NCBI GenBank assembly: GCA_964406815.1
Contig: CAYOTC010000001.1
Coordinates: 70 to 64,069, forward strand
From: an uncultured Bdellovibrionales bacterium
GTDB taxonomy: Bacteria; Patescibacteriota; Minisyncoccia; Moranbacterales; UBA2206
Reading direction: 5' to 3'
Length of the DNA stretch: 64,000 nt
A program made the position numbers and the translations under genes. Shown here one piece after another: positions 3,101-48,653 of the stretch; positions within the stretch are counted from its first letter, which is position 1; the number at the start of each line of letters is the position of its first letter. Below the pieces are notes generated by a model. That model was not told where the DNA came from and did no database searches. It was given only the letters and a program-made list of their open reading frames with translations.

Positions 3101-4373
3101 CATAGGAGCTACTGGCAATGGAAACATCACTAATACCGGAGGCAATAATCCCGAAAGATTTATCCAATGGGGAACAACTTCAGGAATCTATACCAGTGAA
3201 TGTACCGCCGGAACCGGAGGAACTGGAACGTATTCTTGTGCAATGAACAGTCTTACTCCTGAAACTACTTATTACTATCGAGCTAAAGCAACTAACTCAG
3301 GAGGAACCAGTTATGGAGATGAAAGTTCTTTTACTACTATTCCCGAAGGCATAATTATTCCCGATCCAATCCCTCAAGACATGACTGACGCTTACAATGA
3401 AGGATATATATCTATAGGAACCGGAACTCTTAATAGCACTAACCAAGTAACTACAAATCTTGACCTGACTATCACATCCAATAATGGCCAAGCCACTCTT
3501 CCCGTAAACACCCAAATCACCAACACCGACTCAGGCAACATCGATATGTCTCAATTCTCCATCTCTAACGTAACCACCCAGACCAAATCAACAATCTCCA
3601 CCACCAGAGGCTCAATCGAGATCGGTATCCCCAATACTAACTTAACTTTCTCCCAACCGATAGAAATATCAATAAGTGTAGGAACTCAATACAATGGAGA
3701 TATCCTGACTATCCAATCCCGATCCTACAACCAATCAGATTGGACCGATGAAGGCACCTGCACCGTCACCAACGGAATCTGCAGCTTCACTACCACCCAC
3801 GCCACCACCTATACCGTGAACGGAGACGGAACTATTACCGGAGAGACCAACATCAATACCAATCTCCCCATAGAATCAACCATCTCTCTCAGTTGTCCCG
3901 ATTCATTGGATCTAACCTCTATCACCGGCACCGGACAATCAACAATCGATACAAGCAACGAAGCTACCTGCAACATCGCCACCAACAACTCCAACGGCTA
4001 CAAGCTGGAATGGCAAGCTTCCAGTAATAATATGCAAAATTCCAATTCCGATACTATCAGTTCCTATACCCCAATAACTCCCAATGCTCCCGAACCTTGG
4101 CTCATCGACAATACCGCAAGTGAATGGGGAGCCAGACTAAAGAGCACCTCTACCGATAACGATACATCCACTTGGGGATTAAGTGATGGATATGACGGAA
4201 ACTGGTTAAACATAGATAACTCCACTCCATTTGAAATCATAAGAAGAACAGAAGAAACCGACCAATCCGGATCAGATGAAATCATCCAATTCGGAGCGGA
4301 AGTCGGATCAAACAAATTCCAACCTTCTGGAACTTACACTACTACAGTTACTATGACGGCGACGACGTTGTAA
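155..4373 (+). CDS. Giant secreted repeat protein. N-terminal signal peptide, then about 14 tandem ~51-aa repeats (LDTSFNPGTGA..IQSDGKILIGGSF.SYNGT.RN.IARLNSDGS; delta-60/TIGR02608-like from memory), then 3 FN3-like ~97-aa repeats and a T/S/N-rich C-terminal region. The two track ORFs (155..475 and 483..4373) look like one gene split by a frameshift near 440-482.
   Basis: Track ORFs 155..475 (signal peptide MNLKKKTKLGSRF...AGNAQA) and 483..4373. The first repeat unit is cut short (TYNNYSMYCSSQF*) while the other frame continues IARLNSDGTLDTSFNPG, matching the repeat consensus. Nucleotide periodicity 153 nt (about 330..2460) and ~290 nt x3 (about 2470..3345). Confidence 0.6.
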
Positions 4374-4443
4374 GACATATATCATATATCATGTAGCATG
4401 TAGCAGGAATCGGAGAACAAAAAACATAAAATACAAGATACGA

Positions 4444-4476
4444 AAAACAGTCTGCGGGAAGCGGGCTGTTTTTGTT
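4444..4476. terminator. Weak bidirectional terminator-like hairpin between the convergent giant-protein gene and the relA-like gene (A-run, ACAG...CTGT stem, T-run).
   Basis: aaaaACAGtctgcgggaagcgggCTGTtttt. Short stem, flanked by A and T runs. Confidence 0.3.
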
Positions 4477-4506
4477 AAATTCAACATTTAAAAATACGGA
4501 TAAATC

Positions 4507-6033
4507 TTATTTTTGATGAATTCCTATATTATCTTCGGTTTTTTTTAAGCTTTTTTTAATATGCGCTTTCGCAATGGAAGTTTTGACAAATTTCAGCCAG
4601 TCCCGACTGGGCTGTTTTTCTTCTTTAGAAGTTAATATTTCAATTACGTCTCCGTTTTTTATCGCGTAATCCAAAGGAACCATCTTACCATTCGCCTTTG
4701 CCCCAAGAGTCCTATTTCCTATGGAACTGTGAACCTTGAAAGCAAAATCGACCGGAGTGGATTCTTCCGGCAAATCGATTATATCTCCGAGCGGAGTGAA
4801 AGCGAAAATATGATTTTTGAAAAAATCAATTCGGAGACCTTCAACAAATTCTTGATTGTCTTTACCGAGTTCATTTTGCCATTCTCTAAGTTGTCGGACC
4901 CATGCCAATTCTTTTTCTGGAATATCAACCTTCGGTTTGCTTCGAAAAAAATAATCCCGAATTCCTTTTTTTCTTTCGGAATATAACCAGTGTGAAGCGA
5001 TTCCAAACTCAGCCTCGTCATCCATTTTTTTTGTACGAATCTGTATTTCCAAGAAATTTCCTTCTGGTCCAAAAATCGTTGTGTGAATCGATTGATACCC
5101 ATTGGGTTTTGGAAGAGAAACATAATCCTTAATCCTTCCGACCAAAGGGCGATATTTTTTATGGACTATTCCCAAAGCTTCATAACAATTGGTAACTTCC
5201 GAAACGATGATTCGGATCCCGATTAGATCATAAATCTTATTGATGTCCATGTCGTGTCTTTTCATTTTTTGGAATAGGCTGAAAAGATGTTTGGTTCTTC
5301 CGAAGATATCTATCACTTCAATTCCTTCAAGCTGAAGTTCTTTCTTGAGTTCCGTTATGACTTCATTAATGTATTTTTTTCGCAAATCATATTGGTCGCG
5401 AGTTAATTTGCTGACAAAATCATAATTTTCTCTGTCAAGAAATTTAAAGGATTGATCTTCGAGACGCGCTTTCATTTCTCCGATTCCCAAGCGATTGGCA
5501 ATTGGTGCAAATATTTCCAATGTTTCCAAGGCGATTCGATGGCGTTTTTCCGGTGGCAAATATTCGAGAGTTTCGATATTATGCAACCTGTCGGCAAGCT
5601 TTATAAGAACTACTCGGATATCAGCCGCCATTGCCAGAAACATTTTCCTTAAATTTTCCAAATAGAGCTCTTCTTTTGTTCCATGGAGTCTTATTTTTCC
5701 CAGTTTTGTTACACCATCAACCAGTCCGGAGATTTCTGGACCGAATTTTTTCTCTATATCTTTAAGTGTGACTTGGGTATCTTCTGAAACATCATGGAGA
5801 ATTCCGGCAGAAATCGTCTTAGATCCCATCCCGAGTTTAGCAAGATTGAGAGCAGTATGAAGTGAATGCTGGATATAATCACGGCCGGACTTTCTCAGTT
5901 GTCCTTTGTGGGCTAAGTTGGCTGTTTCATAAGCGCCACGTATCAAAGCTTCTCGTTTAAAATCTAAATTAAACCTAACGCTCTTGAGAACATCTTCAAT
6001 TGTGATTATTTCCGTGGCTGACATATTTTTCAA
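4507..6033 (-). CDS. relA: Bifunctional (p)ppGpp synthetase/hydrolase, RelA/SpoT family (HD domain, synthetase domain, TGS domain; no ACT).
   Basis: HD motif ILHDVSEDT. Synthetase-domain block KHLFSLFQKMKRHDMDINKIYDLIGIRIIV...YQSIHTTI. TGS-like IFAFTPLGDIIDLPEESTPVDFAF. Confidence 0.85.
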   Translation of the reverse strand: MKNMSATEIITIEDVLKSVRFNLDFKREALIRGAYETANLAHKGQLRKSGRDYIQHSLHTALNLAKLGMGSKTISAGILHDVSEDTQVTLKDIEKKFGPEISGLVDGVTKLGKIRLHGTKEELYLENLRKMFLAMAADIRVVLIKLADRLHNIETLEYLPPEKRHRIALETLEIFAPIANRLGIGEMKARLEDQSFKFLDRENYDFVSKLTRDQYDLRKKYINEVITELKKELQLEGIEVIDIFGRTKHLFSLFQKMKRHDMDINKIYDLIGIRIIVSEVTNCYEALGIVHKKYRPLVGRIKDYVSLPKPNGYQSIHTTIFGPEGNFLEIQIRTKKMDDEAEFGIASHWLYSERKKGIRDYFFRSKPKVDIPEKELAWVRQLREWQNELGKDNQEFVEGLRIDFFKNHIFAFTPLGDIIDLPEESTPVDFAFKVHSSIGNRTLGAKANGKMVPLDYAIKNGDVIEILTSKEEKQPSRDWLKFVKTSIAKAHIKKSLKKTEDNIGIHQK

Positions 6034-6094: not shown

Positions 6095-8377
6095 TTATTC
6101 TTCGTACCCGCATTCTTTGTTTGAACATTTGGTTTTTCCCTTAGCGGCAAAAACCATAAGGCTTTTGCATTTCGGACAGTTTTTTCCAGTAGGCTTATTC
6201 CAAATAGCGAAGTCACACTTAGGATAGGCATTGCATCCATAAAATAATCTTCCGCGTTTTGATTTTCTTTCTATGATGTCTCCCGAATTGCATTTCGGAC
6301 ATTTTACTCCAACCTTATTTTCTATTTTCTTTATATTACTACATTCCGGATATTTGGAACATCCCAAAAAAGCTCCGAATTTTCCCCGTTTCAAAATCAT
6401 TTTTGATCCGCATTTGTCGCAAACTTCTCCGGAAAACTCTTCATCCATCTTTTTTTCTTCCGCTGTCTTTTCGGTATGTTTGCACTCCGGATAATTTGAG
6501 CAAGCGATAAATTTTCCAAAACGCCCAAACTTGATAATCAAATCTCCTCCGCAATCCGGACACTGCTTATCGATTTTTTCTTGAAAAGATTCTTTTTTAA
6601 CTTCTTTTGTTTTTGTTTTCAAATTTTTGTGGAAAGGAACATAGAAATCTCGGACTACCGGTACCCATTCTTTTTCTCCATTGGCGATGGAATCGAAATT
6701 TTCTTCCAAGGTGGCGGTAAATTCTGTGTTAACGATTTGAGGAAAATGTTCTACTAAGGCATCATTTACAACTGCTCCGATTTCCAACGGGAAAAGTCTT
6801 CGCTCTTCGTTTTTGTCGACATATTTTCTTTCGATTATGGTCGAAATGGTCGGCGCATAAGTTGAGGGCCGTCCGATTCCGTGTTCTTCCAAAATTTTTA
6901 CCAGTGTCGCTTCATTATATCTTGGCGGAGCTTGAGTTAATTTCTGGTTCGGCAAAAGTTCAAGAAGATTTAGCCTATTTCCAATTTCCATTTTGGGTAA
7001 GATGTTTTCTCCGTCTTTAGCAGGTACTTTTTTTCCTCCGCCATAAACTTTCAAAAATCCATCGAATTTCAAAGTTGATCCGAGAGCGGAAAAAGAATAT
7101 TCATTTTTTGATTTCTTATTTTCCGCCTTTATTTCAACTTTCATCGAATTGAAAATTGCTGGTGGCATTTGGGAAGCGATCATTCTTTCCCAAATAAGCT
7201 TATAAAGCTTGTAATGCTTCGGATCAATTGATAGTTTTAATTCATCAGGAGTTTTTTCCGGATAAGCCGGACGGATGGCTTCGTGAGCCTCTTGAGCGCC
7301 CTTCGATTTATTTTTGAAGAATCTTGGGCTTTCCAAGGCATATTTTTTCCCGAAATTCTTAGTGATAATTTTTTGAGCGGACAGAAGCGACTCCAAGGAA
7401 AGATTAACGCTGTCAGTTCTCATATAAGTTATAAATCCTTCCTCATATAGTTTCTGAGCAATCATCATTGTTTGCTTAGCGGAATATCCTAGGGTATTTA
7501 TGGCAGATTGCTGGAGAGTGGATGTTGTAAACGGAGGAAGAGGCGATCGGGTAGTTTCTTTTTCTGCAATATCGGAAACGGAGAAATCCGATTCATTGAG
7601 ATCAGATATTATTTTTTCTGCATCCGGCTGATTTTTTATTATAGTCTTCTTTATTCTATAGTCCCCGGCAAAAAGTTTGAGAGTCTCTGTGCTTTCTATT
7701 TTTTCTCCATTATTTTTCGTAAGTTCAGCTTCAAAAGTATTTTCCGCATCAATCCCATCTTCTTTTTTAAGTCTGGCAGAAATTTTCCAATATTCTTCTG
7801 GGTGGAATTTTTCAATTTCTCTCTCTCTTTCAACAATCAGTCGTACGGCGACAGATTGAACACGTCCAGCAGAAAGTCCCCGGCGGATTTTTTTCCAAAG
7901 AAAGGGGGAAAGTTCATAGCCGACTAGACGATCAACGATACGTCTGGCTTGTTGCGCATTAACAAGATTCACATCCAATTCTCTCGGATTTTCCAGCGCT
8001 TTTTCAATGGCGGTTTTTGTAATCTCATGAAAGACGATTCTTTCCGTTTTTTTCTCATCTTTCTTTGGCTTTTTTCCATCAGAGAGATCCAGCGCTTGGA
8101 CTAAATGCCAGGAAATCGCTTCTCCTTCGCGGTCTTCGTCGGTTGCAAGGATGACCTTATCTGATTTTTTAGCAAGTCTCTTAAGTTCTTCCACCCTATC
8201 GACAGCTTTTCCCGGAATGACATATTGCGGAGTGAAATCATTTTCAATATCAATACCCATTTCTTTAGTGGGTAAATCGCGAATATGGCCATAACTGGAC
8301 TTTACGGTATATTTTTTTTCTAAGAATTTAGAAATTGTTTTAGCCTTAGTGGGGGATTCGACAATTATCAGATTCAT
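6095..8377 (-). CDS. topA: DNA topoisomerase I with C-terminal multi-C4 zinc fingers.
   Basis: TOPRIM N-terminus MNLIIVESPTKAKTISKFL. Topoisomerase IA core. C-terminal repeated CPxCG / CxxC zinc-ribbon modules. Confidence 0.9.
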   Translation of the reverse strand: MNLIIVESPTKAKTISKFLEKKYTVKSSYGHIRDLPTKEMGIDIENDFTPQYVIPGKAVDRVEELKRLAKKSDKVILATDEDREGEAISWHLVQALDLSDGKKPKKDEKKTERIVFHEITKTAIEKALENPRELDVNLVNAQQARRIVDRLVGYELSPFLWKKIRRGLSAGRVQSVAVRLIVEREREIEKFHPEEYWKISARLKKEDGIDAENTFEAELTKNNGEKIESTETLKLFAGDYRIKKTIIKNQPDAEKIISDLNESDFSVSDIAEKETTRSPLPPFTTSTLQQSAINTLGYSAKQTMMIAQKLYEEGFITYMRTDSVNLSLESLLSAQKIITKNFGKKYALESPRFFKNKSKGAQEAHEAIRPAYPEKTPDELKLSIDPKHYKLYKLIWERMIASQMPPAIFNSMKVEIKAENKKSKNEYSFSALGSTLKFDGFLKVYGGGKKVPAKDGENILPKMEIGNRLNLLELLPNQKLTQAPPRYNEATLVKILEEHGIGRPSTYAPTISTIIERKYVDKNEERRLFPLEIGAVVNDALVEHFPQIVNTEFTATLEENFDSIANGEKEWVPVVRDFYVPFHKNLKTKTKEVKKESFQEKIDKQCPDCGGDLIIKFGRFGKFIACSNYPECKHTEKTAEEKKMDEEFSGEVCDKCGSKMILKRGKFGAFLGCSKYPECSNIKKIENKVGVKCPKCNSGDIIERKSKRGRLFYGCNAYPKCDFAIWNKPTGKNCPKCKSLMVFAAKGKTKCSNKECGYEE

Positions 8378-10722: not shown

Positions 10723-12024
10723 TTGCTGTTCCTGTTATTTGGTAAAAACAAAAAAATGGATACATTGGGAGGCGACTTAAATATCTTTCAAATAGCCGGC
10801 AAAATAGTTTATTTTGGCTGGTGGTTGATTCTGCCAATAATTTTTTGGCAACTTTTTAAAGTTATCTGGATTGATTTTGTGGCTTTTTATTCCAAGAACA
10901 GCTGGTATCTTAATCAAAAATGGTCTGTTCTGGAAATTATTCCGCCTCGTGACATTGAATCCGGTCCTAAACCGATGGAGTCGGTTTTTACCGGTATTGC
11001 CGGAGCGATAGCAGCGCCGAATACTTTTGATACTTGGATTAAGGGTCAGATTCCTGACCGATTTAGCGTGGAGCTTGTCGGCGAGGAAGGAAAAGTGCAT
11101 TATTATATCCGAACTCAGAAAAAATACCGCAATATGATTGAGGCGCAGATTTATGCCCAATATCCGAATGCGCAGGTTATCGAAGTGGAAGATTATTACA
11201 GTAAGTTTCCCAAAATTGTTCCTAATCGTGATTGGGATCTTTGGGGAACTGATTTTGAATTTACCAGAAAAAAATACTTTCCTATTCGGACATACGATAA
11301 ATTCCAAGAGGATATTACCGGCAATATGGTTGATCCTATGGCGGCGATGGTGGAGGTTTTGGGAACGCTTGGTCCGGGTCAGCATATCTGGCTGCAATTT
11401 GTTCTGCAAGCGGTTCCTGAGCCGGATATTATAAAAGAAAGCAAAGAAGTGATTGATGAACTTAAAGGAAAAAAGGCAGTTCAATTTTTCGGTTTTTTAG
11501 ATAATATAATGGATGTTTTTTCAAATGTTTTTAAACTTATTTTCAAAGGAGAACTCAGTTTTGAAACGGCGGATAAAAAAGATGAACAGCCATTGGAATT
11601 TCGTCTTTCCCCGATGGAAAAAGAAATCCTGAAAGCAGTTGAGGAAAATGCCGGCAAGAATCAATTTACAACCAAAATGAGGATGATAATTTTGGGAAAA
11701 AGGGAAGTTTTTGATAAAAATTTGATCAGTATTTTTATCGGATCGCTCAAGCAGTTCAATGATATGAATGCCAATCAATTCAAGCCGGAAGATATTTCGA
11801 AAACTTATGGAAAGATTTTTTTCACCGAAGGCATTGCCAATTTAAGAAAGAGAAAAATTTATGACAGATACAGAAAGAGAAATATGGATGGTGTGAATGT
11901 GCAATTTTCCGTTAAAGAATTGGCTACAATCTTCCATTTTCCGAATATCGTGGTAAAATCTCCGGCTGTAACTCAAACTTCCGGAAAACTCGGTGCAGCG
12001 CCTTCAAATCTGCCAGTGGAATAA
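10723..12024 (+). CDS. Membrane-anchored hypothetical protein (N-terminal TM helix). Likely partner of the downstream ATPase.
   Basis: Hydrophobic N-terminus IVYFGWWLILPIIFWQLFKVIWIDFVAFY. No recognisable catalytic motifs. Confidence 0.4.
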   Translation: MLFLLFGKNKKMDTLGGDLNIFQIAGKIVYFGWWLILPIIFWQLFKVIWIDFVAFYSKNSWYLNQKWSVLEIIPPRDIESGPKPMESVFTGIAGAIAAPNTFDTWIKGQIPDRFSVELVGEEGKVHYYIRTQKKYRNMIEAQIYAQYPNAQVIEVEDYYSKFPKIVPNRDWDLWGTDFEFTRKKYFPIRTYDKFQEDITGNMVDPMAAMVEVLGTLGPGQHIWLQFVLQAVPEPDIIKESKEVIDELKGKKAVQFFGFLDNIMDVFSNVFKLIFKGELSFETADKKDEQPLEFRLSPMEKEILKAVEENAGKNQFTTKMRMIILGKREVFDKNLISIFIGSLKQFNDMNANQFKPEDISKTYGKIFFTEGIANLRKRKIYDRYRKRNMDGVNVQFSVKELATIFHFPNIVVKSPAVTQTSGKLGAAPSNLPVE

Positions 12025-12097
12025 TAATTGAATTGCTAAATTGTTAAATGGCTTGATGGCTGTAAAAATATAGCAACAAATACTGAAGAAATTTAAC

Positions 12098-12129
12098 TAT
12101 TTATCAATTTAACCATTTATCAATTTAAC
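12098..12129 (+). repeat. Tandem 16-nt direct repeat (tATTTATCAATTTAAC x2, plus an extra AATTTAAC) immediately upstream of the ATPase start codon.
   Basis: gaaATTTAACtATTTATCAATTTAACcATTTATCAATTTAACaaATG. Confidence 0.5.
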
Positions 12130-12131
12130 AA

Positions 12132-13970
12132 ATGACTCAAATAAATTTTTTCGCCAAAACTAATTTTAGGAACCAGGAAAGGATTTTCGGAATCAAGGAG
12201 GATGATCGCCGCCGACATATGTATATTATCGGAAAGACCGGTATGGGAAAATCCAACTTGCTGGAGAATATGGCGATTCAGGATATTCGCAATGGCAAAG
12301 GAGTATGCGTTGTTGATCCGCACGGAGAATTTGCGGAAAAGATGCTTCGCGCCATTCCAGCCGAACGGATAAATGATGTGGTTTATTTCAATCCGGCGGA
12401 CGCGGAATTTCCGGTGGCTTTTAATATTTTGGAAGCGGTCGAAGAAGATAAAAAAAACTTGGTCGCTTCCGGAATGATGGGGGTTTTCAAAAAAATCTGG
12501 CCGGACGTGTGGAGTCCGAGGATGGAATATATTCTTAACAACACTATTCTTGCACTTTTGGATTATCCTGGTTCGACGATGCTTGGAGTGAATCGGATGA
12601 TGAGCGATAAAGATTACAGAAAAAGAGTCTATCCGAAAATCAAAGATCCGGTGGTGAAATCTTTTTGGATAAATGAGTTCGACAAATGGGAAGACCGATT
12701 TCGAAAAGAAGCGGTGGCAGCGATCCAAAACAAAGTCGGACAATTCTTGTCCTATACCTTAGTCCGTCATATTATCGGTCAGCCAAAATCGACCATCGAT
12801 ATGCGAGAGATTATGGATAATCAGAAAATCTTGATTGTTAATCTCTCCAAAGGCAGGATCGGGGAAGACGCGATGCGGCTTTTGGGAGGAATGATAATCA
12901 CCAAAATCCAGCTGGCGGCGATGAGTCGGGTGGAAATTACGGAAGAGGAAAGAAAAGATTTCTATCTTTATGTCGACGAATTCCAGAATTTTGCGACGGA
13001 ATCTTTTTCCAACATCCTTTCTGAAGCGAGAAAATATCGCTTGTGTTTGATTTTGGCTCATCAATATATTAATCAGTTGATATTTGACGGAAATTCGACA
13101 GTGCGTGATGCAATTTTTGGAAACGTCGGAACACTCATATCCTTCCGGGTCGGTGCGGAAGACGCGGAACATCTTGAGAAGGAATATGAGCCGGTTTTTA
13201 TGATGAACGACATTGTCAATCTTTCGAAATATAATATTTATCTGAAATTGATGATCGACGGAATTGCCGGTGACGCTTTTTCCGCGACGACGCTTCCGCC
13301 GATTTCCATCGCTGATACGAAAGATAATGAAGAAAAGGCTATTCGGATTTCACGGGAACGGTATGGAAAATCCAGAAAGGAAGTTGAAGATAAGATCGCG
13401 CGTTGGAGCGGTATGGGCGGATATGACGAGCCGGAAGTGATGGTTGATAAAAAATCTTCTGAAGTTGAAATGAAAGACGAATTTGTTCCGGAAATTAACA
13501 ATATCAAAAATGTAAGTATAGTGAAGGAAACTCCCTCAGCTAAACCAGCGGTGGCTGTTTCTGAGAAAAAAATTCCTGCCGTGTCTTCGGAGGCAAAAGA
13601 GGAGAAGGTGATGTATGAAGCGACTTGCGATACCTGCGAAGAAAAGATAATGGTGCCGTTCAAGCCGGACAAATCTCGGCCGACTTTCTGCCGGGAGTGT
13701 CTTAAGGATTACCAGCGTCTACGGGCGAGAAAGCAGGAAGAGATGCAGCAAACTGCGAGAAAGAATTATCCTCCGAAAATATCAAACAGCAATCCTAAGG
13801 CTGAAGAAAATGATTATCAGCCGGGCGTTGTTGTTCCGAAAGACAAACCGATGTCCCTTTCTCAGATGTCGCATATCGCGCCGAAAAAATTCAAGTCGCC
13901 AAAAAGAAATCCCAATATCGATTTGGGAGGGCTAAGAGATTTAATAAATAAGAGTCGGAAAGAAAATTAA
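12132..13970 (+). CDS. FtsK/HerA/TraD-superfamily P-loop ATPase (DUF87/AAA_10-like) with a C-terminal CxxC...CxxC zinc ribbon and a basic tail.
   Basis: Walker A IIGKTGMGKSNLL. DPHGEF motif typical of HerA/DUF87 ATPases. Walker B LYVDEFQNF. C-terminal CDTCEEK...FCRECL. Confidence 0.55.
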   Translation: MTQINFFAKTNFRNQERIFGIKEDDRRRHMYIIGKTGMGKSNLLENMAIQDIRNGKGVCVVDPHGEFAEKMLRAIPAERINDVVYFNPADAEFPVAFNILEAVEEDKKNLVASGMMGVFKKIWPDVWSPRMEYILNNTILALLDYPGSTMLGVNRMMSDKDYRKRVYPKIKDPVVKSFWINEFDKWEDRFRKEAVAAIQNKVGQFLSYTLVRHIIGQPKSTIDMREIMDNQKILIVNLSKGRIGEDAMRLLGGMIITKIQLAAMSRVEITEEERKDFYLYVDEFQNFATESFSNILSEARKYRLCLILAHQYINQLIFDGNSTVRDAIFGNVGTLISFRVGAEDAEHLEKEYEPVFMMNDIVNLSKYNIYLKLMIDGIAGDAFSATTLPPISIADTKDNEEKAIRISRERYGKSRKEVEDKIARWSGMGGYDEPEVMVDKKSSEVEMKDEFVPEINNIKNVSIVKETPSAKPAVAVSEKKIPAVSSEAKEEKVMYEATCDTCEEKIMVPFKPDKSRPTFCRECLKDYQRLRARKQEEMQQTARKNYPPKISNSNPKAEENDYQPGVVVPKDKPMSLSQMSHIAPKKFKSPKRNPNIDLGGLRDLINKSRKEN

Positions 13971-13991
13971 TTTGTTTTGTAAGAGTTATAT

Positions 13992-15164
13992 ATGAATAAT
14001 AATCAAAAACATTTGAATCATGTAGATAAAGTTAATTTGGGGTCCTACTATACTCCAGAAATTGTTGTTGATTTGACTTATTCTATCTTGTATAAAAATA
14101 TTTCTAATATTAAGAGCTTTACAATTTTAGATTCATCTTGTGGTTATGGATCATTTTTGGAAAAAAAAGATTTAATAAAAAGATTTGTGGGTGCGGATAT
14201 TGATAATATAGCTATATTGGAAGCTACGAAAAAAAATAAACACGTTGATTTTATTTGCCAGAATTCACTTATGAATGTGTGCAGGGATAATCTTACTATT
14301 AAGAAAGAAGAAAAAATTATAGTTATAGGAAACCCTCCATATAATGATACAACCTCTATAATTCGTAGCTCTATAAAAGACGCATCTATTCAGAATAAAA
14401 TTGATTTAGATATAAAAACCAGAGATTTAGGAATGTCTTTTTTGCTTTCTTATGACAAACTTAAGGCTGATTATGTTTGTGTTTTACATCCATTATCTTA
14501 TTTAATTAAAAAAGCTAATTTTTCTCTACTCTCAAAATTTTCTAGAAATTATAAATTAATTGACGGATTAATTATAAGTAGTCATGAATTTTCCGAGACT
14601 TCTCGTGGAATAGCCTTTCCGATTTTAATTGCTCTTTACAAAAGAGATGAAATAGGGATGGGCTATGATTATATTCAAAATTATCAGTTCAAAGTAAAGG
14701 ATGATGGAGTCTTTCGACTAAAAGATTTTGATACGATAGTAAACTATGTTCAAAAATATCCAAATAAAAAATTTTTAAATAAAAATGATAAACCAGTAGC
14801 TAAGTTTTGGACTTTGAGAGATATAAATGCTCTTAAACGAAACCGGACTTTTATTAATGAGGATACTTATAATACCGTTTATGTGTTAATGGAAAAACTC
14901 CCTTATTATTGTTATATTGATGTGTTTAAACAATATGCTGATAAAATGCCATATTTTATTGGAAATTGCGATATTATTATTGATAATAATAAATTTGGAA
15001 AAATAAAGGAATGCTTTATCGATCAAAGTATTCACACAAATCCAGTTTTAAAAAATAAGTTTAATTTTAGAAAAATTCCTAATGCTAAACTAAAAATAGA
15101 TAATTATTTTAAAGAATTATTAGGAAGTAAGCTAGGTAAAAAATATGCCAAAAATTTTAATTAA
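13992..15164 (+). CDS. Gamma-class N6-adenine DNA methyltransferase (M.TaqI/Eco57I-like architecture).
   Basis: Motif X GSYYTPEIV. Motif I ILDSSCGYGSFL. Motif IV IVIGNPPYN. C-terminal ~270 aa would be the target-recognition domain. Very AT-rich relative to flanks. Confidence 0.7.
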   Translation: MNNNQKHLNHVDKVNLGSYYTPEIVVDLTYSILYKNISNIKSFTILDSSCGYGSFLEKKDLIKRFVGADIDNIAILEATKKNKHVDFICQNSLMNVCRDNLTIKKEEKIIVIGNPPYNDTTSIIRSSIKDASIQNKIDLDIKTRDLGMSFLLSYDKLKADYVCVLHPLSYLIKKANFSLLSKFSRNYKLIDGLIISSHEFSETSRGIAFPILIALYKRDEIGMGYDYIQNYQFKVKDDGVFRLKDFDTIVNYVQKYPNKKFLNKNDKPVAKFWTLRDINALKRNRTFINEDTYNTVYVLMEKLPYYCYIDVFKQYADKMPYFIGNCDIIIDNNKFGKIKECFIDQSIHTNPVLKNKFNFRKIPNAKLKIDNYFKELLGSKLGKKYAKNFN

Positions 15165-15906
15165 TGAAATTGAACATAAAATTGAAGTGCCAATTTTACT
15201 AACTGCAGTAAGTGGAAAAATTCGCATTAAGAATCGTTCAATCGTAAATGAATACGGAACTCCTGTCGCAGTTAGACGAGACGGTTTTGCTTTAAACAAC
15301 TATGTTGAATGGCAAATCGGCTATGATGTTGTCAAAAAGGAAGCTGATAAATTAGCAGAATCATCACTGCCAGAAACAGAGTTTATTGGTGCAAATGGTA
15401 AAAACAAAGCACTTTACGAGTTATCAGAGTATATTTGGTATTTTCATAAATGGAATATTATATCCAGAGAAGAGCTAGAGAGTGTTGCTAATTACCTCAA
15501 TTCGATACTAGCTAATGACTTGATTGATAATAACTCTGAATTACAGATTGATCGTAGTCATCCGATAGCAAAAAATATAAATGGATTTGATTTTGAGTAC
15601 ACCCAAGTTAAATATCCTCTTTTAATTTACAAATTCAATGGATATGAAATAGTTACCGAAATAAAAATTACCGAAAAACAATATGCAGTTGGCACTCAGC
15701 CAATGCTATATTTATGTTTTTCGATTACAGAATTAAAAGCTAGAACTAACTTAGTCGGACGAACCGCCGAAATGAAAGAAATAGCTCACTTTGAAATTAC
15801 AGAAAGTAATATTAAAGTATTTTTGGAAATGTTAAAAATGTTTGGCACTCTATCTGATAGTCATAGACATGATATTTTACAAATTATAGATGTAATATTG
15901 ACTTAA
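15145..15906 (+). CDS. Hypothetical protein. Candidate cognate restriction endonuclease, by operon context only.
   Basis: Overlaps the MTase stop by 20 nt and has the same extreme AT-richness. No clear PD-(D/E)xK motif is visible by eye. Confidence 0.3.
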   Translation: MPKILINEIEHKIEVPILLTAVSGKIRIKNRSIVNEYGTPVAVRRDGFALNNYVEWQIGYDVVKKEADKLAESSLPETEFIGANGKNKALYELSEYIWYFHKWNIISREELESVANYLNSILANDLIDNNSELQIDRSHPIAKNINGFDFEYTQVKYPLLIYKFNGYEIVTEIKITEKQYAVGTQPMLYLCFSITELKARTNLVGRTAEMKEIAHFEITESNIKVFLEMLKMFGTLSDSHRHDILQIIDVILT

Positions 15907-15943
15907 AATAAACTCGCTTAAGTTTTAAATATAGATATTTTTG

Positions 15944-15975
15944 AAAATATTAAAAAGCAATACTCACAGATTGCT
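15944..15975 (+). terminator. Rho-independent terminator after the MTase/partner pair.
   Basis: aaaAAGCAATactcacagATTGCTTttttttc. Confidence 0.6.
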
Positions 15976-15998
15976 TTTTTTCTTTTTTTAGTTTATTC

Positions 15999-17069
15999 TT
16001 GGAAATTATGGACGATGTAAATAAGAAAAAATTGAAAGTGTTGGTTGGGATGAGCGGCGGAGTGGATTCGTCGACGACTGCGGCCATTCTCAAGAGTCAG
16101 GGCTATGAAGTTTCCGGGGTGTTTTTACGTTTCTGGAAAGAGGAAGAAAGCAAAGAAAATAAATCTTTGGAAGACGCAAAAAAAGTCGCAGAAATACTAA
16201 ACATCCCATTTTATATTGTGGATGCCAGAGAAGATTTTAAAAAAACTATCGTGGATAATTTTCTCAATGAATATGAAAGCGGACGCACTCCCAATCCGTG
16301 CATTATTTGCAACCGGGAAATGAAATTCAAGATACTTCTTGAAAAAGCGGATGAGATTGGCGCGGATTATGTTGCAACAGGTCATTATGCGATTGTTAAG
16401 AAAGAAGATGATTTCTATAAATTATTTGCGGCTAAGGATAAAAATAAGGATCAATCATATTTTTTGTATCGTCTGACGCAAAAGGAACTCAGTCGCCTTA
16501 TTTTTCCTCTGGGTGAATACGAGAAAAAAGAAGTGCGAGAGATGGCGAAGAATTTCAATCTTTCGGTCTTTGCCAAGGAAGAGTCGCAGGATATCTGTTT
16601 TTTGAAGAGTTCGGTGGCGGAATTTCTTGGAAAAAATCTGAAAAGCGAAGAAGGCGATATGATAAACGAGAAAGGCGAAAAAATCGGAACGCATAAAGGT
16701 TTGCCGTTCTATACCATCGGACAAAGAAAGGGGATTGATATCGGCGGAGATGGCCCATATTTTGTTGTCAGCAAGGATTTAAAGAATAATGTTCTTGTCG
16801 TTACGAATAAAAACAAAGAAAAACAATTTGAAAAAGAGATAGAAATAAATTCGGTGACTTGGACAGGAGATATTCCTGATTTTCCGGCTCATCTTTTGGC
16901 CCGGACGAGATATCGTAATCCCTTGATTTATGCTACAATAAATGCGAAAAAGGATGACGGAGGTTTAAGAATAGTTTTTGGAGAACCGCAAAAAGCCGTT
17001 TCTCCCGGCCAATCAGTCGTGTTTTATTCAAAAGAGGAAGAGGTTGTCGGAGGAGGAATAATAAGATAA
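15999..17069 (+). CDS. mnmA: tRNA-specific 2-thiouridylase MnmA.
   Basis: PP-loop VGMSGGVDSS. CNREMKF. C-terminal beta-barrel region. Confidence 0.85.
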   Translation: MEIMDDVNKKKLKVLVGMSGGVDSSTTAAILKSQGYEVSGVFLRFWKEEESKENKSLEDAKKVAEILNIPFYIVDAREDFKKTIVDNFLNEYESGRTPNPCIICNREMKFKILLEKADEIGADYVATGHYAIVKKEDDFYKLFAAKDKNKDQSYFLYRLTQKELSRLIFPLGEYEKKEVREMAKNFNLSVFAKEESQDICFLKSSVAEFLGKNLKSEEGDMINEKGEKIGTHKGLPFYTIGQRKGIDIGGDGPYFVVSKDLKNNVLVVTNKNKEKQFEKEIEINSVTWTGDIPDFPAHLLARTRYRNPLIYATINAKKDDGGLRIVFGEPQKAVSPGQSVVFYSKEEEVVGGGIIR

Positions 17070-17100
17070 TTTTAAATTTCTAATTTCTAATTTCTAAAAA

Positions 17101-17376
17101 ATGAATAATGATTTTAGCAATTTGAACGAGGAAGAGAAGAAGCGCAAACAACGTTCTGTCCAAATGGAGGTTGTTATTTTGGAATCCGATCTGCGGAAAT
17201 TTACCCGCGAAAAGGATGTTTTGGAAGCGGAAATGAGAAAGATCCGCCAAGACCAGGAACGTCTCCGGATCGAAGCCGATGAAAAAAGAAAAAAATTCGA
17301 CCGGATCGTCCAGGACATCGCGACGAAAGAAATAGAAATTAAAAAACTTAAGAAAAGTCTTTATTTAATCAAATAA
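17101..17376 (+). CDS. Small coiled-coil hypothetical protein.
   Basis: K/E/R-rich heptad pattern. No known motif. Confidence 0.3.
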   Translation: MNNDFSNLNEEEKKRKQRSVQMEVVILESDLRKFTREKDVLEAEMRKIRQDQERLRIEADEKRKKFDRIVQDIATKEIEIKKLKKSLYLIK

Positions 17377-17387
17377 AATAAAAAAAT

Positions 17388-17684
17388 ATGCGAGACCTCA
17401 AATCAGGCATCTATGATATTTTTTTGGAAGAAATAAATGCGCAACTCGGAAAAATTCAGGATGAAGCGGTGAGAAAGGAAAAGAGCGAGAAAGCCCAGAA
17501 ACGTCTTCGAGAGTATGAATCCCAATTCGACAAGGAGATTGGTCAGGCAGTGGCGCGTCTTATGGACAATGTCGTTTATAAACTGAAAAACGACATCAAT
17601 CAGGATCTCAATCTTTCACCGGACAAATTCGATGACATCTTGAGGAAAAAGATTTTGGAAAAATTATATAAGAATAATAAGTAA
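17388..17684 (+). CDS. Small hypothetical protein.
   Basis: ORF with moderate codon regularity. No known motif. Confidence 0.3.
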   Translation: MRDLKSGIYDIFLEEINAQLGKIQDEAVRKEKSEKAQKRLREYESQFDKEIGQAVARLMDNVVYKLKNDINQDLNLSPDKFDDILRKKILEKLYKNNK

Positions 17685-17709
17685 ATCTTTCCTAATATAA
17701 AATTATTTT

Positions 17710-19608
17710 ATGACTGCCAATGAACTGCGTCAGAAATATTTGGAATTTTTCAAATCCCATGGCCACGCGATAATTCCGTCGGCCTCACTGGTACCGGAAA
17801 ATGATCCGACCGTACTTTTCACAACCGCCGGAATGCATCCATTGGTCCCATATTTGATGGGCGAGAAACATCCGATGGGAAGCCGGCTTACTAATTGTCA
17901 GAAATGCGTGCGGACCGGAGATATTGATGAAGTGGGTGATAATCGCCACCTGACTTTTTTTGAGATGTTGGGAAACTGGAGCTTAGGAGATTATTTCAAG
18001 AAAGAGGCGATTGAATGGAGCTTCGAATTTATGATCGATTCAAAATGGCTTGGGCTTGATCCGAAAAGAATTTATGTGACGGTTTTTGCCGGAGATGAAA
18101 AATCAGGCGTGGCAAAAGATGATGAGTCGATTGAAATTTGGAAAAAACAATTTGAGAAAGTTGGAATAAAAGCTGAAATTTGCGAACTTAATCAAGAGGC
18201 ACAAAAAGACAGCCGGATATTTTTGCTCGGCAAGAGGGACAATTTCTGGGGACCGGCCGGTGAAACCGGACCATGCGGACCGTGCACTGAAATATTTTAT
18301 GATACTCGTCCGGAAGAAGGGGAAATTATTGGAACACACGAAGAACTGGTGGGATCTTTTCGACTGATGGAAATCTGGAATGATGTTTTTATGGAATTTG
18401 AAAAAACTAAAGACGGAAAATTTGAAAAAATGGCGCAAAAGAATGTGGACACCGGAATGGGTTTGGAAAGGACTATTACAGTTTTGTCCGGTAAGGAAAA
18501 TGTTTTTGACACCGATCTATTCTTGCCGATAATCAAAAAGATTGAAGAATTGTCCGGAAAATCATATCAGGAGGAAGAGAATAAGAAATCAATTAGGATA
18601 ATCGCCGATCATTTGAAAGCCAGCGTGTTTATTATCGCTGACGGAATAAATCCTTCAAATACAGAAAGAGGATATGTATTAAGAAGATTGATTCGTCGTG
18701 CTATTAGGGAAGGTCAAAGACTGGGATTAATTAATAAAATCTTTGCATCGGATATCGCTAAAATTATTCAAATAATGTATGGCGAAATTTATCCAGAAAT
18801 AAAAAATGAAAAAATAATAAAAGAACTAAATGAGGAAGAGGAAAAATTTAGAAGAACAGTGATGAGAGGATTAAGTGAATTATTTAAAACAATAGGAATA
18901 GAAGAAACGATTGTATTTGGAAAAATTGAAGAATTAAAAATTGATTTGAATAAAATAAATGGCAAAAAACTATTTGATTTATATCAAAACCATGGATTGC
19001 CTATTGAGATGAGTATTGATGAAATTGATAGGCAATTATTATCAGAGAAAAGAAGAATTGATGAAAAAGATAAGAATCAGTGGATCGCCGAGTTTAATGA
19101 AGAGTTAAAAAGGCACCAAGACCTTTCCCGCACGGCTTCGGTCGGGATGTTTAAAGGAGGTTTAGCGGATGCGGGAGAAATTGCGACGAAATATCATACT
19201 GCCACTCATTTGCTCTTGGCGGCGCTTCGTGAAGTTCTTGGGCCGGAAACCTATCAAAAAGGTTCCAATATTAATGCGGAAAGATTGCGCTTCGATTTCA
19301 GCTATCCGGAAAAACTGACTCCCGAGCAAATCAAAAAAATTGAAGATCGTGTGAATGAAAAGATAGGGGAGAATATTCCGATTGAAATGGTTGAGATGAA
19401 AAAAGATGAAGCGTTGAAACTGGCTAAAGTTTCTTTTGATCCGGCGAAATATGGTGATGTTGTTAAAGTCTATAAGATCGGGGATTTCAGCACGGAACTT
19501 TGCGGCGGACCGCATGTAAAGAACACCGGAGAAATCGGAAAATTCAGGATTAAAAAAGAAGAAAGCTCCAGCGCCGGAATTCGGCGGATTAAAGCGGTTA
19601 TTAAGTAA
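17710..19608 (+). CDS. alaS: Alanyl-tRNA synthetase, short form (catalytic, tRNA-recognition and editing domains; the C-terminal C-Ala/oligomerisation domain is absent).
   Basis: N-terminal LRQKYLEFFKSHGHAIIPSASLVPENDPTVLFTTAGMHP. Editing-site HTATHLL and CGGPHV. 632 aa versus about 870 aa typical. Confidence 0.85.
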   Translation: MTANELRQKYLEFFKSHGHAIIPSASLVPENDPTVLFTTAGMHPLVPYLMGEKHPMGSRLTNCQKCVRTGDIDEVGDNRHLTFFEMLGNWSLGDYFKKEAIEWSFEFMIDSKWLGLDPKRIYVTVFAGDEKSGVAKDDESIEIWKKQFEKVGIKAEICELNQEAQKDSRIFLLGKRDNFWGPAGETGPCGPCTEIFYDTRPEEGEIIGTHEELVGSFRLMEIWNDVFMEFEKTKDGKFEKMAQKNVDTGMGLERTITVLSGKENVFDTDLFLPIIKKIEELSGKSYQEEENKKSIRIIADHLKASVFIIADGINPSNTERGYVLRRLIRRAIREGQRLGLINKIFASDIAKIIQIMYGEIYPEIKNEKIIKELNEEEEKFRRTVMRGLSELFKTIGIEETIVFGKIEELKIDLNKINGKKLFDLYQNHGLPIEMSIDEIDRQLLSEKRRIDEKDKNQWIAEFNEELKRHQDLSRTASVGMFKGGLADAGEIATKYHTATHLLLAALREVLGPETYQKGSNINAERLRFDFSYPEKLTPEQIKKIEDRVNEKIGENIPIEMVEMKKDEALKLAKVSFDPAKYGDVVKVYKIGDFSTELCGGPHVKNTGEIGKFRIKKEESSSAGIRRIKAVIK

Positions 19609-45773: not shown

Positions 45774-47204
45774 ATGATATTCGACTCATTATTCCAATGT
45801 TTCAAAAAAATTAGGACACTTAAAGAAAGCGAGCAAAAGTTCCGTGTTCTTTTTGATAATATTCCGGTGATGGCTTATGTCATTGATAAGGATCATAAAT
45901 ATATCGCCTACAATAAAGCCAGTGCGGAATTTTTTCGCGAAAATATCGGGAAAACTACCCAGGAATTAAAAGGGCTTCCTCCCGAAATAAGAGAAGTCTG
46001 GTATAGAGCGGAGGATCAAGTTATAAAATCAGGAAGACCGGCTTGGTATATTGAAAAATCAAAATCTCGCTATGATCAAGAGAGTGTGTATTATGAAAAC
46101 TGGCTGAGTCCGGTGAAAGATAAGGAGGGGAATGTCGAGATTATGATCGGAGTTTCTCATAATATAACCAATCTCAAAAAGAGATACGATATTGCCAATC
46201 AGAGAAAACAGATGCTTGAGGAACTTGTGAAAAGTCGTACGGAAGAATTGGAAAATATGAATAACAAATTGAAGCGCACATTGTCAGAATATGAAATAGT
46301 CCAAAAAGCTTTGGAAGAAAGCGAGACTAAATATCGTATGCTGGTTGAAACATTGAATGATAGCCTGATATTTAACAATGAAGATGGAATAATTACTTTC
46401 GTCAATCAAAGGACTTGTGAGATGTTGGGTTATGAAAAAAACGAATTGATTGGTAGGGAGCTGACTTCTTTGATTCATGAAGAAAGCCTGAAGGTTTTTC
46501 AACACAACATCCAACAGAAAAGCATCAAAGGTTTGAATAAGAAATATCGGGGGAAATTTTTGAAAAAAAATGGGGAGTTTGTAAATGTGATTGTTTCCCC
46601 CAAGTCCATATTAGATGAAAAAGGACGCTACAAGGGAACTCTTGGAGTTATTATGGATATAACCGAATTGAAAGAAACTGAAAATCGTTTGTTCGAACTT
46701 TATAAGCATTTAGGAACTATAAATCTTCAGATATCTGTTTTGCTTGACGTGCATAAATTCAGCAATAAGATAGCGGATCGGGAAAAAATAAATGATTATA
46801 CATTAGTTTCTGCTTTAAGTCTTTCCAACGCGGATGTGGCAGCTCTTTATAAATTTGATCAGGAAAATTTTTCTTTTAATATCATATCTTCAACTGATAG
46901 AAATGGAAAAGATGATTTTGATCTTAAAACTATTCCAGGAAAATTATCAGAAATTCAAAAACTCATAGAAAGACGCAAGATAATTCAAGGAAGTGTTATT
47001 GATGAGGAAGATGCGGTGGGAATGCTTAAAAGCAAGTTTTCCTATTTTTTGGCTTTGCCTTTGGTAAAAGGGGATAATGTCGGCGGAATGCTTATTTTGG
47101 GATATTATGGTCATCGAGAGGGAAGCATTCATGAACTTGATCTTTATGAAGCTTTTGCCGCTCAGATTTCTTTCGTGCTTTTCAACGCCGGAACTATAAG
47201 TTAA
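45774..47204 (+). CDS. PAS/GAF-domain sensor protein without an obvious output domain.
   Basis: Two PAS-like blocks (FRVLFDNIPVMAYVIDKDHKYIAYNKASAEFF; YRMLVETLNDSLIFNNEDGIITFVNQRTCEMLGY). C-terminal GAF-like region. No HisKA/HATPase motifs. Confidence 0.55.
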   Translation: MIFDSLFQCFKKIRTLKESEQKFRVLFDNIPVMAYVIDKDHKYIAYNKASAEFFRENIGKTTQELKGLPPEIREVWYRAEDQVIKSGRPAWYIEKSKSRYDQESVYYENWLSPVKDKEGNVEIMIGVSHNITNLKKRYDIANQRKQMLEELVKSRTEELENMNNKLKRTLSEYEIVQKALEESETKYRMLVETLNDSLIFNNEDGIITFVNQRTCEMLGYEKNELIGRELTSLIHEESLKVFQHNIQQKSIKGLNKKYRGKFLKKNGEFVNVIVSPKSILDEKGRYKGTLGVIMDITELKETENRLFELYKHLGTINLQISVLLDVHKFSNKIADREKINDYTLVSALSLSNADVAALYKFDQENFSFNIISSTDRNGKDDFDLKTIPGKLSEIQKLIERRKIIQGSVIDEEDAVGMLKSKFSYFLALPLVKGDNVGGMLILGYYGHREGSIHELDLYEAFAAQISFVLFNAGTIS

Positions 47205-47257
47205 ATATTTTCCTTGATCTTTATTTATAGTACAAATAATGAGAATATAATAAATTT

Positions 47258-47300
47258 AGGCTGGGACGAATCTTGATTCGAACCAGCCTGTTTTTTATAG
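47258..47300 (+). terminator. Terminator-like hairpin after the PAS gene.
   Basis: AGGCTGGgacgaatcttgattcgaaCCAGCCTgtttttt. Confidence 0.5.
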
Positions 47301-47489
47301 AAAAGATAGTTTTATTAATGTTGAGGCTCTGGGACGAAGTTGGAACTTATTTATCTCTTAGAGTTGAATAATTTTCTTGGTATATATTATGATTTCTATA
47401 TGTTTTTATTTTCTCAAAATATGGTGTAAAATAAAGAAAATAGCAATTTCTTTTAATTAAGGGGGTTTTATAAAATAAATTTAAAAAAT

Positions 47490-48197
47490 ATGGCAGATTT
47501 AAAAAAGGATATTATTGGCATCACTATCGGAATAAGATTTGGCAGATCATTTAGAATGTCTGATATATCCGGTGAAATAATTGATAATATCTTATACAGC
47601 GAAGAAACTCCATTTGGAACAGATTTTTTTCCTCAAGTTCAAGAAAATTCAAAGAGAGAGAAAACTTTATTTAATCCTAGTACCTCCGAATATCTAAGAA
47701 TCAATACCGATGATTTAATCTTGGGAATAGAGATTAACAATAATTTCGAAGAAAAATTTAATTGGCTTAAGGATGATGTTATAAAATATTTAAAAGATAT
47801 CCTTTTCCACAAATATAATATAAAAAATATCCAGAGGTTAGGTATTATCTTTTCTCATAAAATCGCTAAAAATAAAAAACTTAGCGAAGCAATAAATATA
47901 CTTACTGCAAGCAATGTATCTGATCCTGATAATATAAGCATTTCTTTTTCAAAAAAAGCTTCAACTGAGGAGGCTCTTATTAGAAAAGGTGTTAGTGATT
48001 ATAAAAATAGAATTTATAATTTTTACGATTTAAAAGAGTCACTTAGAGTGGATCTCGATTATCAATACTATTACGAACCAGCTATTGAAGATTTGCGAGA
48101 ATGTTTTACTGAAAAAATACTTGAAAATTCTAAGAAATTCCTAGAAAGTGATTTTCATAATTGGTTAAATGCATATAAAAATGAAGAAACCGAATAG
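47490..48197 (+). CDS. Hypothetical protein (AT-rich island cargo).
   Basis: SD aaGGGGGttttataaaataaatttaaaaaatATG. No motif. Confidence 0.3.
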   Translation: MADLKKDIIGITIGIRFGRSFRMSDISGEIIDNILYSEETPFGTDFFPQVQENSKREKTLFNPSTSEYLRINTDDLILGIEINNNFEEKFNWLKDDVIKYLKDILFHKYNIKNIQRLGIIFSHKIAKNKKLSEAINILTASNVSDPDNISISFSKKASTEEALIRKGVSDYKNRIYNFYDLKESLRVDLDYQYYYEPAIEDLRECFTEKILENSKKFLESDFHNWLNAYKNEETE

Positions 48198-48648: not shown

Positions 48649-48653
48649 AAAAT

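Follow-up and report, generated by a model that had tools for sequence, protein, structure and literature searches.

A probable horizontally inserted PabI-family restriction-modification cassette with a predicted GTAC target in a Patescibacteria-like genome

Introduction

The 64-kb stretch of contig CAYOTC010000001.1 analysed here (the window) contains, at nt 13992–15906, an AT-rich island of two overlapping genes that lies between two host genes, and the question it raises is what this pair encodes and how it came to be there. A first-pass annotation, made from the sequence of the window, had taken the island for a horizontally acquired pair consisting of a gamma-class adenine methyltransferase (M, ORF1) and a restriction enzyme (R, ORF2), and had suggested that the latter might have a novel fold or specificity. 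The evidence presented below makes it very likely that the island arose by horizontal insertion of a minimal type II restriction-modification (R-M) cassette of the PabI family, made up of two genes and with GTAC as its predicted target. The family has so far been placed in Helicobacter, Campylobacter and a few hyperthermophilic archaea, with sporadic members in Brachyspira, Mycoplasma, Mucispirillum and Caloramator (2015 survey, PMC4615327; 2023 review).

Results

ORF1 (nt 13992–15164) and ORF2 (nt 15145–15906) are both on the + strand, both begin with ATG, and specify proteins of 390 and 253 aa. They overlap by exactly 20 nt (nt 15145–15164). The coordinates and the overlap are as originally annotated. 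The GC content of the island is 27.8% (25.6% for ORF1 and 31.0% for ORF2) compared to 36.5% for the whole window, 42.9% for the ATPase gene upstream and 38.9% for mnmA downstream. Only 0.3% of 1915-nt segments across the 64 kb are as AT-rich, and the GC minimum of the entire window falls inside the island. The sliding-window calculation confirms the AT-rich island of the first-pass annotation, although the value given there for the flanks (40–45%) was slightly high for mnmA.

By sequence comparison, ORF2 is a clear member of the PabI/HALFPIPE family. It matches the Pfam profile PF09522 (R.Pab1 restriction endonuclease) with an E-value of 2.2e-43 (147.6 bits, curated cutoff 25), residues 133–251 covering the whole profile (119 positions), and the PADLOC model REase_II PDLC03538 at 2e-15. 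The best match among solved structures is 7CFA (E = 4.5e-57, query residues 10–252 against chain residues 5–237), which is the restriction DNA glycosylase R.CcoLI of Campylobacter coli, and the structures of R.PabI come next at about 1e-12 (2DVY, 5.4e-13). In R.CcoLI the catalytic residues are Tyr52, His222 and Asp225 (Y68, H211 and D214 in R.PabI), the apurinic/apyrimidinic (AP) lyase residue is Lys71, together with Asp53 and Asn67, on an inserted beta-sheet, and the ten residues that read G, T, A and C have been named (PMC7806768). The HMMER alignment shows Y60, H240 and D243 of ORF2 (codons at nt 15322–15324, 15862–15864 and 15871–15873) to be identical to the catalytic three, and K88 (codon at nt 15406–15408), D61 and N84 to be identical to K71, D53 and N67. 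The ten base-reading residues are likewise kept, with K25, R27, E55, Q57, I58, Q179, Q185, M187, Y189 and F233 of ORF2 equivalent to K17, R19, E47, Q49, I50, Q158, Q164, M166, Y168 and F215 of R.CcoLI (chain numbering in 7CFA is offset by +3, and the crystal carries a D225N mutation, as stated in PMC7806768). An alignment of 38 clade members has 15 of these 16 functional positions invariant, and Y189 is at least 90% conserved. The inserted sheet is also present and is 9 residues longer than that of R.CcoLI (aa 66–74). On this homology, ORF2 is predicted to be a GTAC-specific adenine DNA glycosylase with AP-lyase activity.

Structure prediction added little to this assignment. The homologs admissible for it were all more than 79% identical, so that the alignment was shallow and the AlphaFold2 model of ORF2 weak (pLDDT 61, pTM 0.69, with residues 16–70 below pLDDT 50), and models were used as weak support only. 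A Foldseek search of the PDB with this low-confidence model returned 7CFA (E = 1.8e-11, TM 0.56–0.60) followed by 3WAZ and 5IFF, all remaining matches having E > 0.1; the HALFPIPE fold of ORF2 is implied more by the sequence match than by the model. No PD-(D/E)xK, HNH or GIY-YIG domain or fold was found in ORF2 with Pfam, NCBIfam or Foldseek against the PDB. The first-pass annotation had seen no recognisable motif in the 253-aa product and had proposed a search of its predicted structure for such nuclease folds. The profile matched at 2.2e-43 answers the former, and only PabI-family structures were retrieved in the latter. Together with the 7CFA match and the conserved functional residues, PF09522 argues against a new fold or a phosphodiesterase restriction enzyme, and a novel specificity does not fit a known family member that has kept all catalytic and GTAC-recognition residues. 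Membership of a non-nuclease family had been named as a finding that would count against an R-M pair. Chemically this is the case, as the enzymes are glycosylases, but the family is one of restriction enzymes and the R-M reading survives. Tyr180, at the position of R.PabI Arg156, was considered as a change specific to the bacteria of the candidate phyla radiation (CPR) and rejected, as the R protein of a Campylobacter plasmid also has Tyr; no base-recognition role is assigned to this position in the PabI-family papers examined.

ORF1 carries motif X (GSYYTP, aa 17–22, nt 14040–14057, within GSYYTPEIV, aa 17–25), motif I (DSSCGYGSF, aa 47–55, nt 14130–14156, within DSSCGYGSFL, aa 47–56) and motif IV (NPPY, aa 114–117, nt 14331–14342), in the order reported by the first-pass annotation. 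All three are invariant in 37 sequences and are followed by about 270 further residues, the C-terminal part being the target-recognition domain. This gamma-class order agrees with the best fold matches of the low-confidence ORF1 model (pLDDT 61), which are M.TaqI, CamA and M.BseCI. The PADLOC model MTase_II PDLC03275 matches at 3.2e-85, and precomputed matches to PF02384 or PF07669 are present on some close homologs. Solved methyltransferases gave no detectable match by sequence (best E = 0.49). ORF1 is 48% identical (E = 1e-100, residues 3–346) to WP_052778224.1 of the C. coli plasmid p19565112, the gene for which lies directly upstream, and on the same strand, of an annotated R.Pab1 gene; an R.Pab1-family gene 43.6% identical to ORF2 is annotated on 14 conjugative Campylobacter plasmids. 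It is also 50% identical to the M protein of an epsilonproteobacterial locus (L074), and a homology search from that M gene returned no named Helicobacter or Campylobacter enzymes.

Scanning genomes with ORF2 yielded 80 loci. M is upstream of R on the same strand in all of those that hold upstream DNA, which is the arrangement described for the bacterial PabI lineage (PMC4615327). Identities to ORF1 and ORF2 co-vary (r = 0.97, 57 loci holding both genes), and M and R therefore travel and diverge as one unit. ORF1 thus belongs to the bacterial lineage of M.PabI homologs and is in all probability, as first annotated, a gamma-class N6-adenine methyltransferase; it is predicted to methylate the adenine of GTAC (product GTm6AC). 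The proposed M and R pairing is likewise borne out, by a PabI-family R and a partner M that is 48% identical to the M of the Campylobacter plasmid pair.

Of 38 copies, 27 have an extended -10 element (TGnTATAAT) in the 60 nt ahead of the M start, and in 22 of them it ends 6–8 nt before the ATG. The leader of most close-clade loci (-45 to -7 relative to the M ATG) consists of a terminator-like hairpin, cttatcaatat and aaaactGATATAATaaag, followed by the ATG, and with the -10 element so near the start codon the M mRNA would be leaderless or nearly so. TGnTATAAT is absent upstream of the window's M gene, where the resemblance to the leader of the nearest relatives is limited to about 6 nt (ttatat). 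No promoter-like site was detected on the + strand between nt 13700 and 14072, and no terminator-like site between the ATPase gene and M. Transcription of M and R is probably by read-through from the ATPase gene. All close-clade loci keep this geometry of the overlap between M and R (by tblastn coordinates, M runs 17 nt past the start of R), there is an AGGT 7 nt before the R ATG, and translation of R is probably coupled to that of M. Downstream of R, a hairpin at nt 15952–15979 (AAAAAGCAAU / AUUGCUUUUU) with a 10-bp AU-rich stem, an 8-nt loop and a ViennaRNA folding energy of -8.2 kcal/mol is followed by a T-run, TTCTTTTTTT, the whole forming an intrinsic-terminator-like element on the + strand (nt 15952–15989). 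Its sequence was not found in other cassette loci (blastn). The terminator of the first-pass annotation is real, but 'clean' was generous for a hairpin with only two G-C pairs, a number so low that a consensus scan missed it.

The window has 38 GTAC sites, which are unevenly spread, with 15 in the first 8 kb. One lies within the cassette, inside R (nt 15597–15600), a self-target whose methylation M must maintain. Relative to base composition, GTAC is the window's rarest 4-nt palindrome (0.18), and its Markov observed/expected ratio (O/E) is 0.88–0.91 (rank 9 of 16 palindromes). Cassette-free relatives have values of 0.82–0.93. In the host flanks of cassette-bearing genomes the O/E is 0.57–0.61 and GTAC is the most under-represented of the 16 palindromes, which lends weak support to GTAC as the target of the clade. 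GTAC avoidance as a sign of activity in the window's own genome was not supported, the O/E of 0.91 being like that of cassette-free relatives; the lack of adaptation fits either a recent acquisition or a silent copy. The most under-represented palindromes of the window are CATG (Markov O/E 0.49), GGCC (0.62) and GATC (0.68), which suggests past or present pressure from other restriction systems.

A copy in which R has been silent or inactive since loss of the promoter, with M surviving as a solitary epigenetic methyltransferase as is often the case for Helicobacter PabI homologs, would fit the missing TGnTATAAT and the undepleted GTAC. Disruption of R.PabI homologs is frequent (PMC4615327), and decayed cassettes are found among the related loci: antisense HTH_3 and HNH ORFs replace the C-terminal half of M and the N-terminal half of R in L056 (nt 5040–6030), a 257-aa ORF without a Pfam match replaces the same parts in L066 (nt 5010–6030), the cassette of L060 is frameshifted and that of L037 lacks the R start. 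However, both ORFs of the window are full length with all functional residues intact. The cassette runs in the same direction as an expressed-looking host gene that lies only 21 nt upstream, no terminator intervenes, and about 30 of 31 close-clade copies have an intact R, a sign of purifying selection on this gene. A silent copy is accordingly judged unlikely, and an R-M cassette with both genes in working order is the preferred reading.

Recognition of a site other than GTAC is more improbable still. Such a change might be looked for in the modest identity to characterised enzymes (42–50%), in the 9-aa insertion in R, which is specific to the clade, and in the C-terminal region of M, which exceeds that of the Campylobacter partner by about 40 aa. 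Set against these are the identity of all ten G/T/A/C-reading residues with those of R.PabI and R.CcoLI, the standing of GTAC as the most avoided palindrome in carrier flanks, and the specificity of the characterised members R.PabI, R.HpyAXII and R.CcoLI, every one of which recognises GTAC (PMC7806768). A PabI-family cassette directed at GTAC remains the favoured interpretation.

The site occupied by the cassette was compared with that of related loci. On its left is a gene for a VirD4/TrwB-like coupling-protein ATPase with a C-terminal zinc finger (nt 12132–13970, + strand; Pfam TrwB_AAD_bind at 3.7e-14, zf_Tbcl_2, DUF87 and TraG-D_C), separated from the M start by a 21-nt spacer (nt 13971–13991, + strand; border listing and motif census). 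On its right is mnmA, encoding a tRNA 2-thiouridylase (nt 15999–17069, + strand; Pfam tRNA_Me_trans at 2e-74). A metagenome scan with the ATPase protein provided 80 related loci (L081–L160), across which the order UP433 (433 aa, no Pfam match), ATPase, mnmA, a 91-aa ORF (o91) and alaS is conserved; the corresponding block of the window is nt 10723–19608. In about 40 of the 80, mnmA starts 4–300 nt after the ATPase gene, and neither M nor R is present at the ATPase/mnmA locus in any of the 80. The two genes are 2,028 nt apart in the window, a difference explained by the 1,915-nt cassette. In several of the closest syntenic relatives the spacer contains a membrane ORF of about 55 aa, no trace of which is seen in the window. 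The site is empty in some 40 syntenic relatives that lack M and R, and the island is therefore an insertion.

The boundaries of the insertion are sharp. In every locus with a whole cassette (about 35), blastn similarity to the window starts at nt 13982–13992 and ends at nt 15887–15915, and neither flank of the window is shared with any cassette locus recovered by the genome scan, so the moved unit is essentially start codon to stop codon. Nucleotide similarity to about 40 other cassettes stays within these limits. Insertion of just these two genes has been described for the PabI pair in C. coli (PMC4615327). M is 390 aa long in all 31 intact close-clade copies, and each of these is AT-richer than its flanks (mean 30.3% versus 40.3% GC). 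For 37 cassettes, the nearest two ORFs to the left and to the right match 149 different Pfam families, none occurring in more than three loci, and include only one tyrosine recombinase. Cassettes with proteins 80–95% identical occur in unrelated contexts across many CPR classes. Horizontal acquisition, as proposed by the first-pass annotation from composition, is well supported by composition, the empty site and these cassettes. That the low GC is a property of a vertically inherited locus is effectively refuted: cassette GC does correlate with host GC (r = 0.76), indicating some amelioration or long residence, but the empty site, the absence of M and R from all 80 related loci, the unshared flanks and the near-identical cassettes among 149 neighbour families all contradict it.

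The borders of the window's cassette show no sign of an autonomous mobile element, there being no recombinase gene and both neighbours being conserved host genes. Searches for border repeats or a target-site duplication between nt 13500 and 16400 found only chance-level AT-rich matches, the window lacks the terminal inverted repeat end seen in L001, L002 and L029, and no relative of R was found on IMG/VR contigs or in GenBank phages that might point to a viral vehicle. Related loci offer several leads. A same-strand tRNA-Ser gene lies 28–540 nt upstream of M in 11 of the 32 loci with at least 600 nt of upstream DNA (L004, L005, L006, L008, L015, L016, L023, L025, L028, L035 and L060); the anticodons represented are gct, tga, cga and gga, 18 of the 49 tRNAs found across the 80 loci are tRNA-Ser, and no integrase was found beside the tRNA-Ser-linked cassettes. 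In L001 the cassette lies between imperfect inverted repeats some 80 nt long (nt 4639–4721 and 6833–6917), as it does in L002, L009, L026 and L029. The outer end of the repeat, GGAATACATCAGCTAACACGGCATATC, is shared among species and recurs in L002, L009 and L029, and a tyrosine recombinase gene (L001, nt 3724–4590, - strand) abuts the left arm. Cassettes of this type may be non-autonomous carrier elements. A different repeat of about 180 nt (gcggcgcgccag...ggcacgaaattcggcgg...) flanks the cassette in L013, L016, L019, L020, L021 and L031, where it either follows the R stop directly or precedes the M start by about 125 nt, and inverted copies are found on both sides in L021. The repeated flank elements of related loci have no Rfam match. 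The left similarity border ranges from -6 to about -140 nt between loci.

The tRNA-Ser genes, the repeats and the variable left border argue against a transposon with fixed ends. The tRNA-Ser link, the inverted repeats and the 180-nt repeat are all absent from the window. Homology-anchored recombination and small non-autonomous carriers are possible routes of spread, and the observations would agree with uptake anchored by homology in CPR cells that are naturally competent, or with recombination promoted by the abasic-site breaks of the enzyme itself.

The range of the family was examined by database searches. An exhaustive HMMER search of 1.84 billion representatives found no more than 327 clusters at 50% identity, and the family is therefore small in diversity. 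A word-indexed search returned 1,223 R clusters and 2,160 M clusters at 90% identity. For each protein, the best 120 clusters are 79–96% identical to the window's proteins, and the named sources are Moranbacteria, Buchananbacteria, Yanofskybacteria, Falkowbacteria, Uhrbacteria, Portnoybacteria, Staskawiczbacteria, Gracilibacteria, Berkelbacteria, Kuenenbacteria, Saccharibacteria and other Patescibacteria. Contigs of 50–730 kb carry several of the cassettes. Remoter pairs (43–60% identity) come from Poribacteria, Clostridia, Rickettsiales, Omnitrophota and others. No paper linking PabI to CPR was found in the literature, and some proteins from metagenome-assembled genomes are already labelled 'R.Pab1 family restriction endonuclease' by the NCBI pipeline. 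The wide and apparently undescribed abundance in CPR is the part worth following, the kind of cassette itself being known.

Some cassettes that are 72–95% identical to that of the window carry labels from outside the CPR, namely Pacearchaeota (L030), Woesearchaeota (L040), Gammaproteobacteria (L001 and L027), Bdellovibrionales (L002 and L018) and Verrucomicrobiota (L013). These may reflect mis-binning, automatic labelling, or transfer beyond CPR that includes DPANN archaea.

The window has a second AT-rich stretch (nt 46100–51400; about 3.5 kb of it at 28–31% GC), which seems likewise to be acquired or mobile. It contains a PAS/GAF sensor ORF (nt 45774–47204), a DUF2726 nuclease-like ORF (nt 49352–49954), a rolling-circle Rep-like ORF (REP_ORF2-G2P, nt 50392–51312), two ORFs without a Pfam match and one weak Trypco2 ORF. 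A LOOT RNA (Rfam RF03000, nt 49252–49374, + strand) scores 83 bits against a gathering score of 46; it is immediately upstream of the DUF2726 ORF and overlaps the start of that ORF.

Discussion

Several points weigh against the island being a GTAC-directed PabI-family cassette of the kind described. The specificity and activity predicted for it rest on homology, GTAC is no more depleted in the window than in the background of its lineage (0.91 versus 0.82–0.93), and raw GTAC density does not differ significantly between genomes with and without the cassette (p = 0.59). For the window's copy no promoter was found, and expression is assumed. The 9-residue insertion relative to R.CcoLI (aa 66–74) sits beside the AP-lyase sheet, the AlphaFold2 models of both proteins are of low confidence (pLDDT 61 each), and Pfam Eco57I (PF07669) scores 23.1 bits on ORF1, just below its gathering score of 25.3. 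Family membership, the conservation of functional residues, the linkage and co-divergence of M and R, the insertion and its boundaries are directly supported by the comparisons.

The mechanism that we infer, from GTAC specificity and the m6A product to the glycosylase/AP-lyase chemistry, the expression route and current activity, would run as follows. A cassette would have entered the short spacer between the VirD4-like ATPase gene and mnmA of a Patescibacteria-like genome, where it would be transcribed by read-through from the ATPase gene, with R translated by coupling through the 20-nt overlap and transcription stopping at the hairpin (nt 15952–15989). M would methylate the adenine of 5'-GTAC-3' on both strands of host DNA. 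R, as a homodimeric enzyme of the HALFPIPE fold, would bind unmethylated GTAC, flip out guanine and adenine, and hydrolyse the adenine's N-glycosidic bond by means of Tyr60, His240 and Asp243, after which Lys88 would nick the resulting abasic site by beta-elimination. The outcome would be double-strand damage that is hard to religate, produced with no need for a divalent metal, and the pair may both guard against incoming DNA and act as a selfish addiction module.

R.CcoLI/M.CcoLI and the Campylobacter plasmid pairs belong to the same family as the window's cassette and have the same M-then-R layout on one strand. The match to R.CcoLI is full-length, with the catalytic triad, the AP-lyase lysine on its inserted beta-sheet and the GTAC-reading residues identical; R and M of the window are 44% and 48% identical to their plasmid counterparts, and a chromosomal insertion of two genes only is documented in C. 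coli. They differ in their hosts, which are Campylobacterota rather than Patescibacteria-like, in the shorter insertion after the catalytic Tyr of R.CcoLI (the window's R having 9 more residues, aa 66–74), in the 15-nt gap between plasmid M and R where the window has a 20-nt overlap, and in the C-terminus of plasmid M, which is about 40 aa shorter. The window copy also lacks a promoter of its own. R.HpyAXII/M.HpyAXII of Helicobacter pylori, compared here by description, resembles the cassette in being mesophilic, in recognising GTAC with significant AP-lyase activity (PMC7806768), and in being a mobile, selfish element. In Helicobacter, however, R is often disrupted and GTAC is strongly avoided, whereas R is intact in nearly all copies of the window's clade and the window shows no specific avoidance of GTAC.

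The founding member, R.PabI of Pyrococcus abyssi (2DVY, 3WAZ), has the HALFPIPE fold predicted for the window's R and the same catalytic Tyr/His/Asp, and matches that protein with a sequence E-value of 5e-13, about 21% identity and, with the low-confidence model, a fold match of TM about 0.5. It lacks the inserted sheet that bears the AP-lyase lysine, is essentially a monofunctional glycosylase, has an extra N-terminal strand, and in the archaeal R.PabI/M.PabI system the two genes are arranged tail-to-tail. Methyltransferases of the M.TaqI type have the same order of motifs X, I and IV (NPPY) followed by a C-terminal target-recognition domain. M.TaqI is the best structural match of the ORF1 model, with a TM of only about 0.3 from a low-confidence model, and its specificity is different (TCGA).

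A broader proposal, put forward tentatively and held as possible rather than probable, is that the window copy represents an undescribed and very successful PabI lineage that swept through the CPR as a bare cassette of about 1.9 kb, maybe by an unusual route of spread. It is suggested by the more than 1,200 clusters, the 80–95% identity across classes, an R that is intact almost everywhere, the conserved promoter and the lack of a recombinase. If true, the centre of gravity of the family would be in the CPR and not, as in the literature, in Campylobacterota or hyperthermophilic archaea.

CPR bacteria are mostly without CRISPR, and their repair capacity is reduced. To our knowledge, no restriction enzyme outside the PabI family acts as a DNA glycosylase. 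The appropriate annotation for the window itself would be a predicted GTAC-type M/R pair with a glycosylase R. The R protein is a compact mesophilic homolog for biochemistry, and the cassette a natural system for studying the movement of a promoter-to-stop R-M unit without a recombinase. The known range of the family is widened by this intact member, inserted as it is in a core region of a CPR-like chromosome, and by the hundreds of near-identical copies in CPR classes, which together suggest that base-excision restriction is common in ultra-small bacteria, whether as a defence or as a selfish element.

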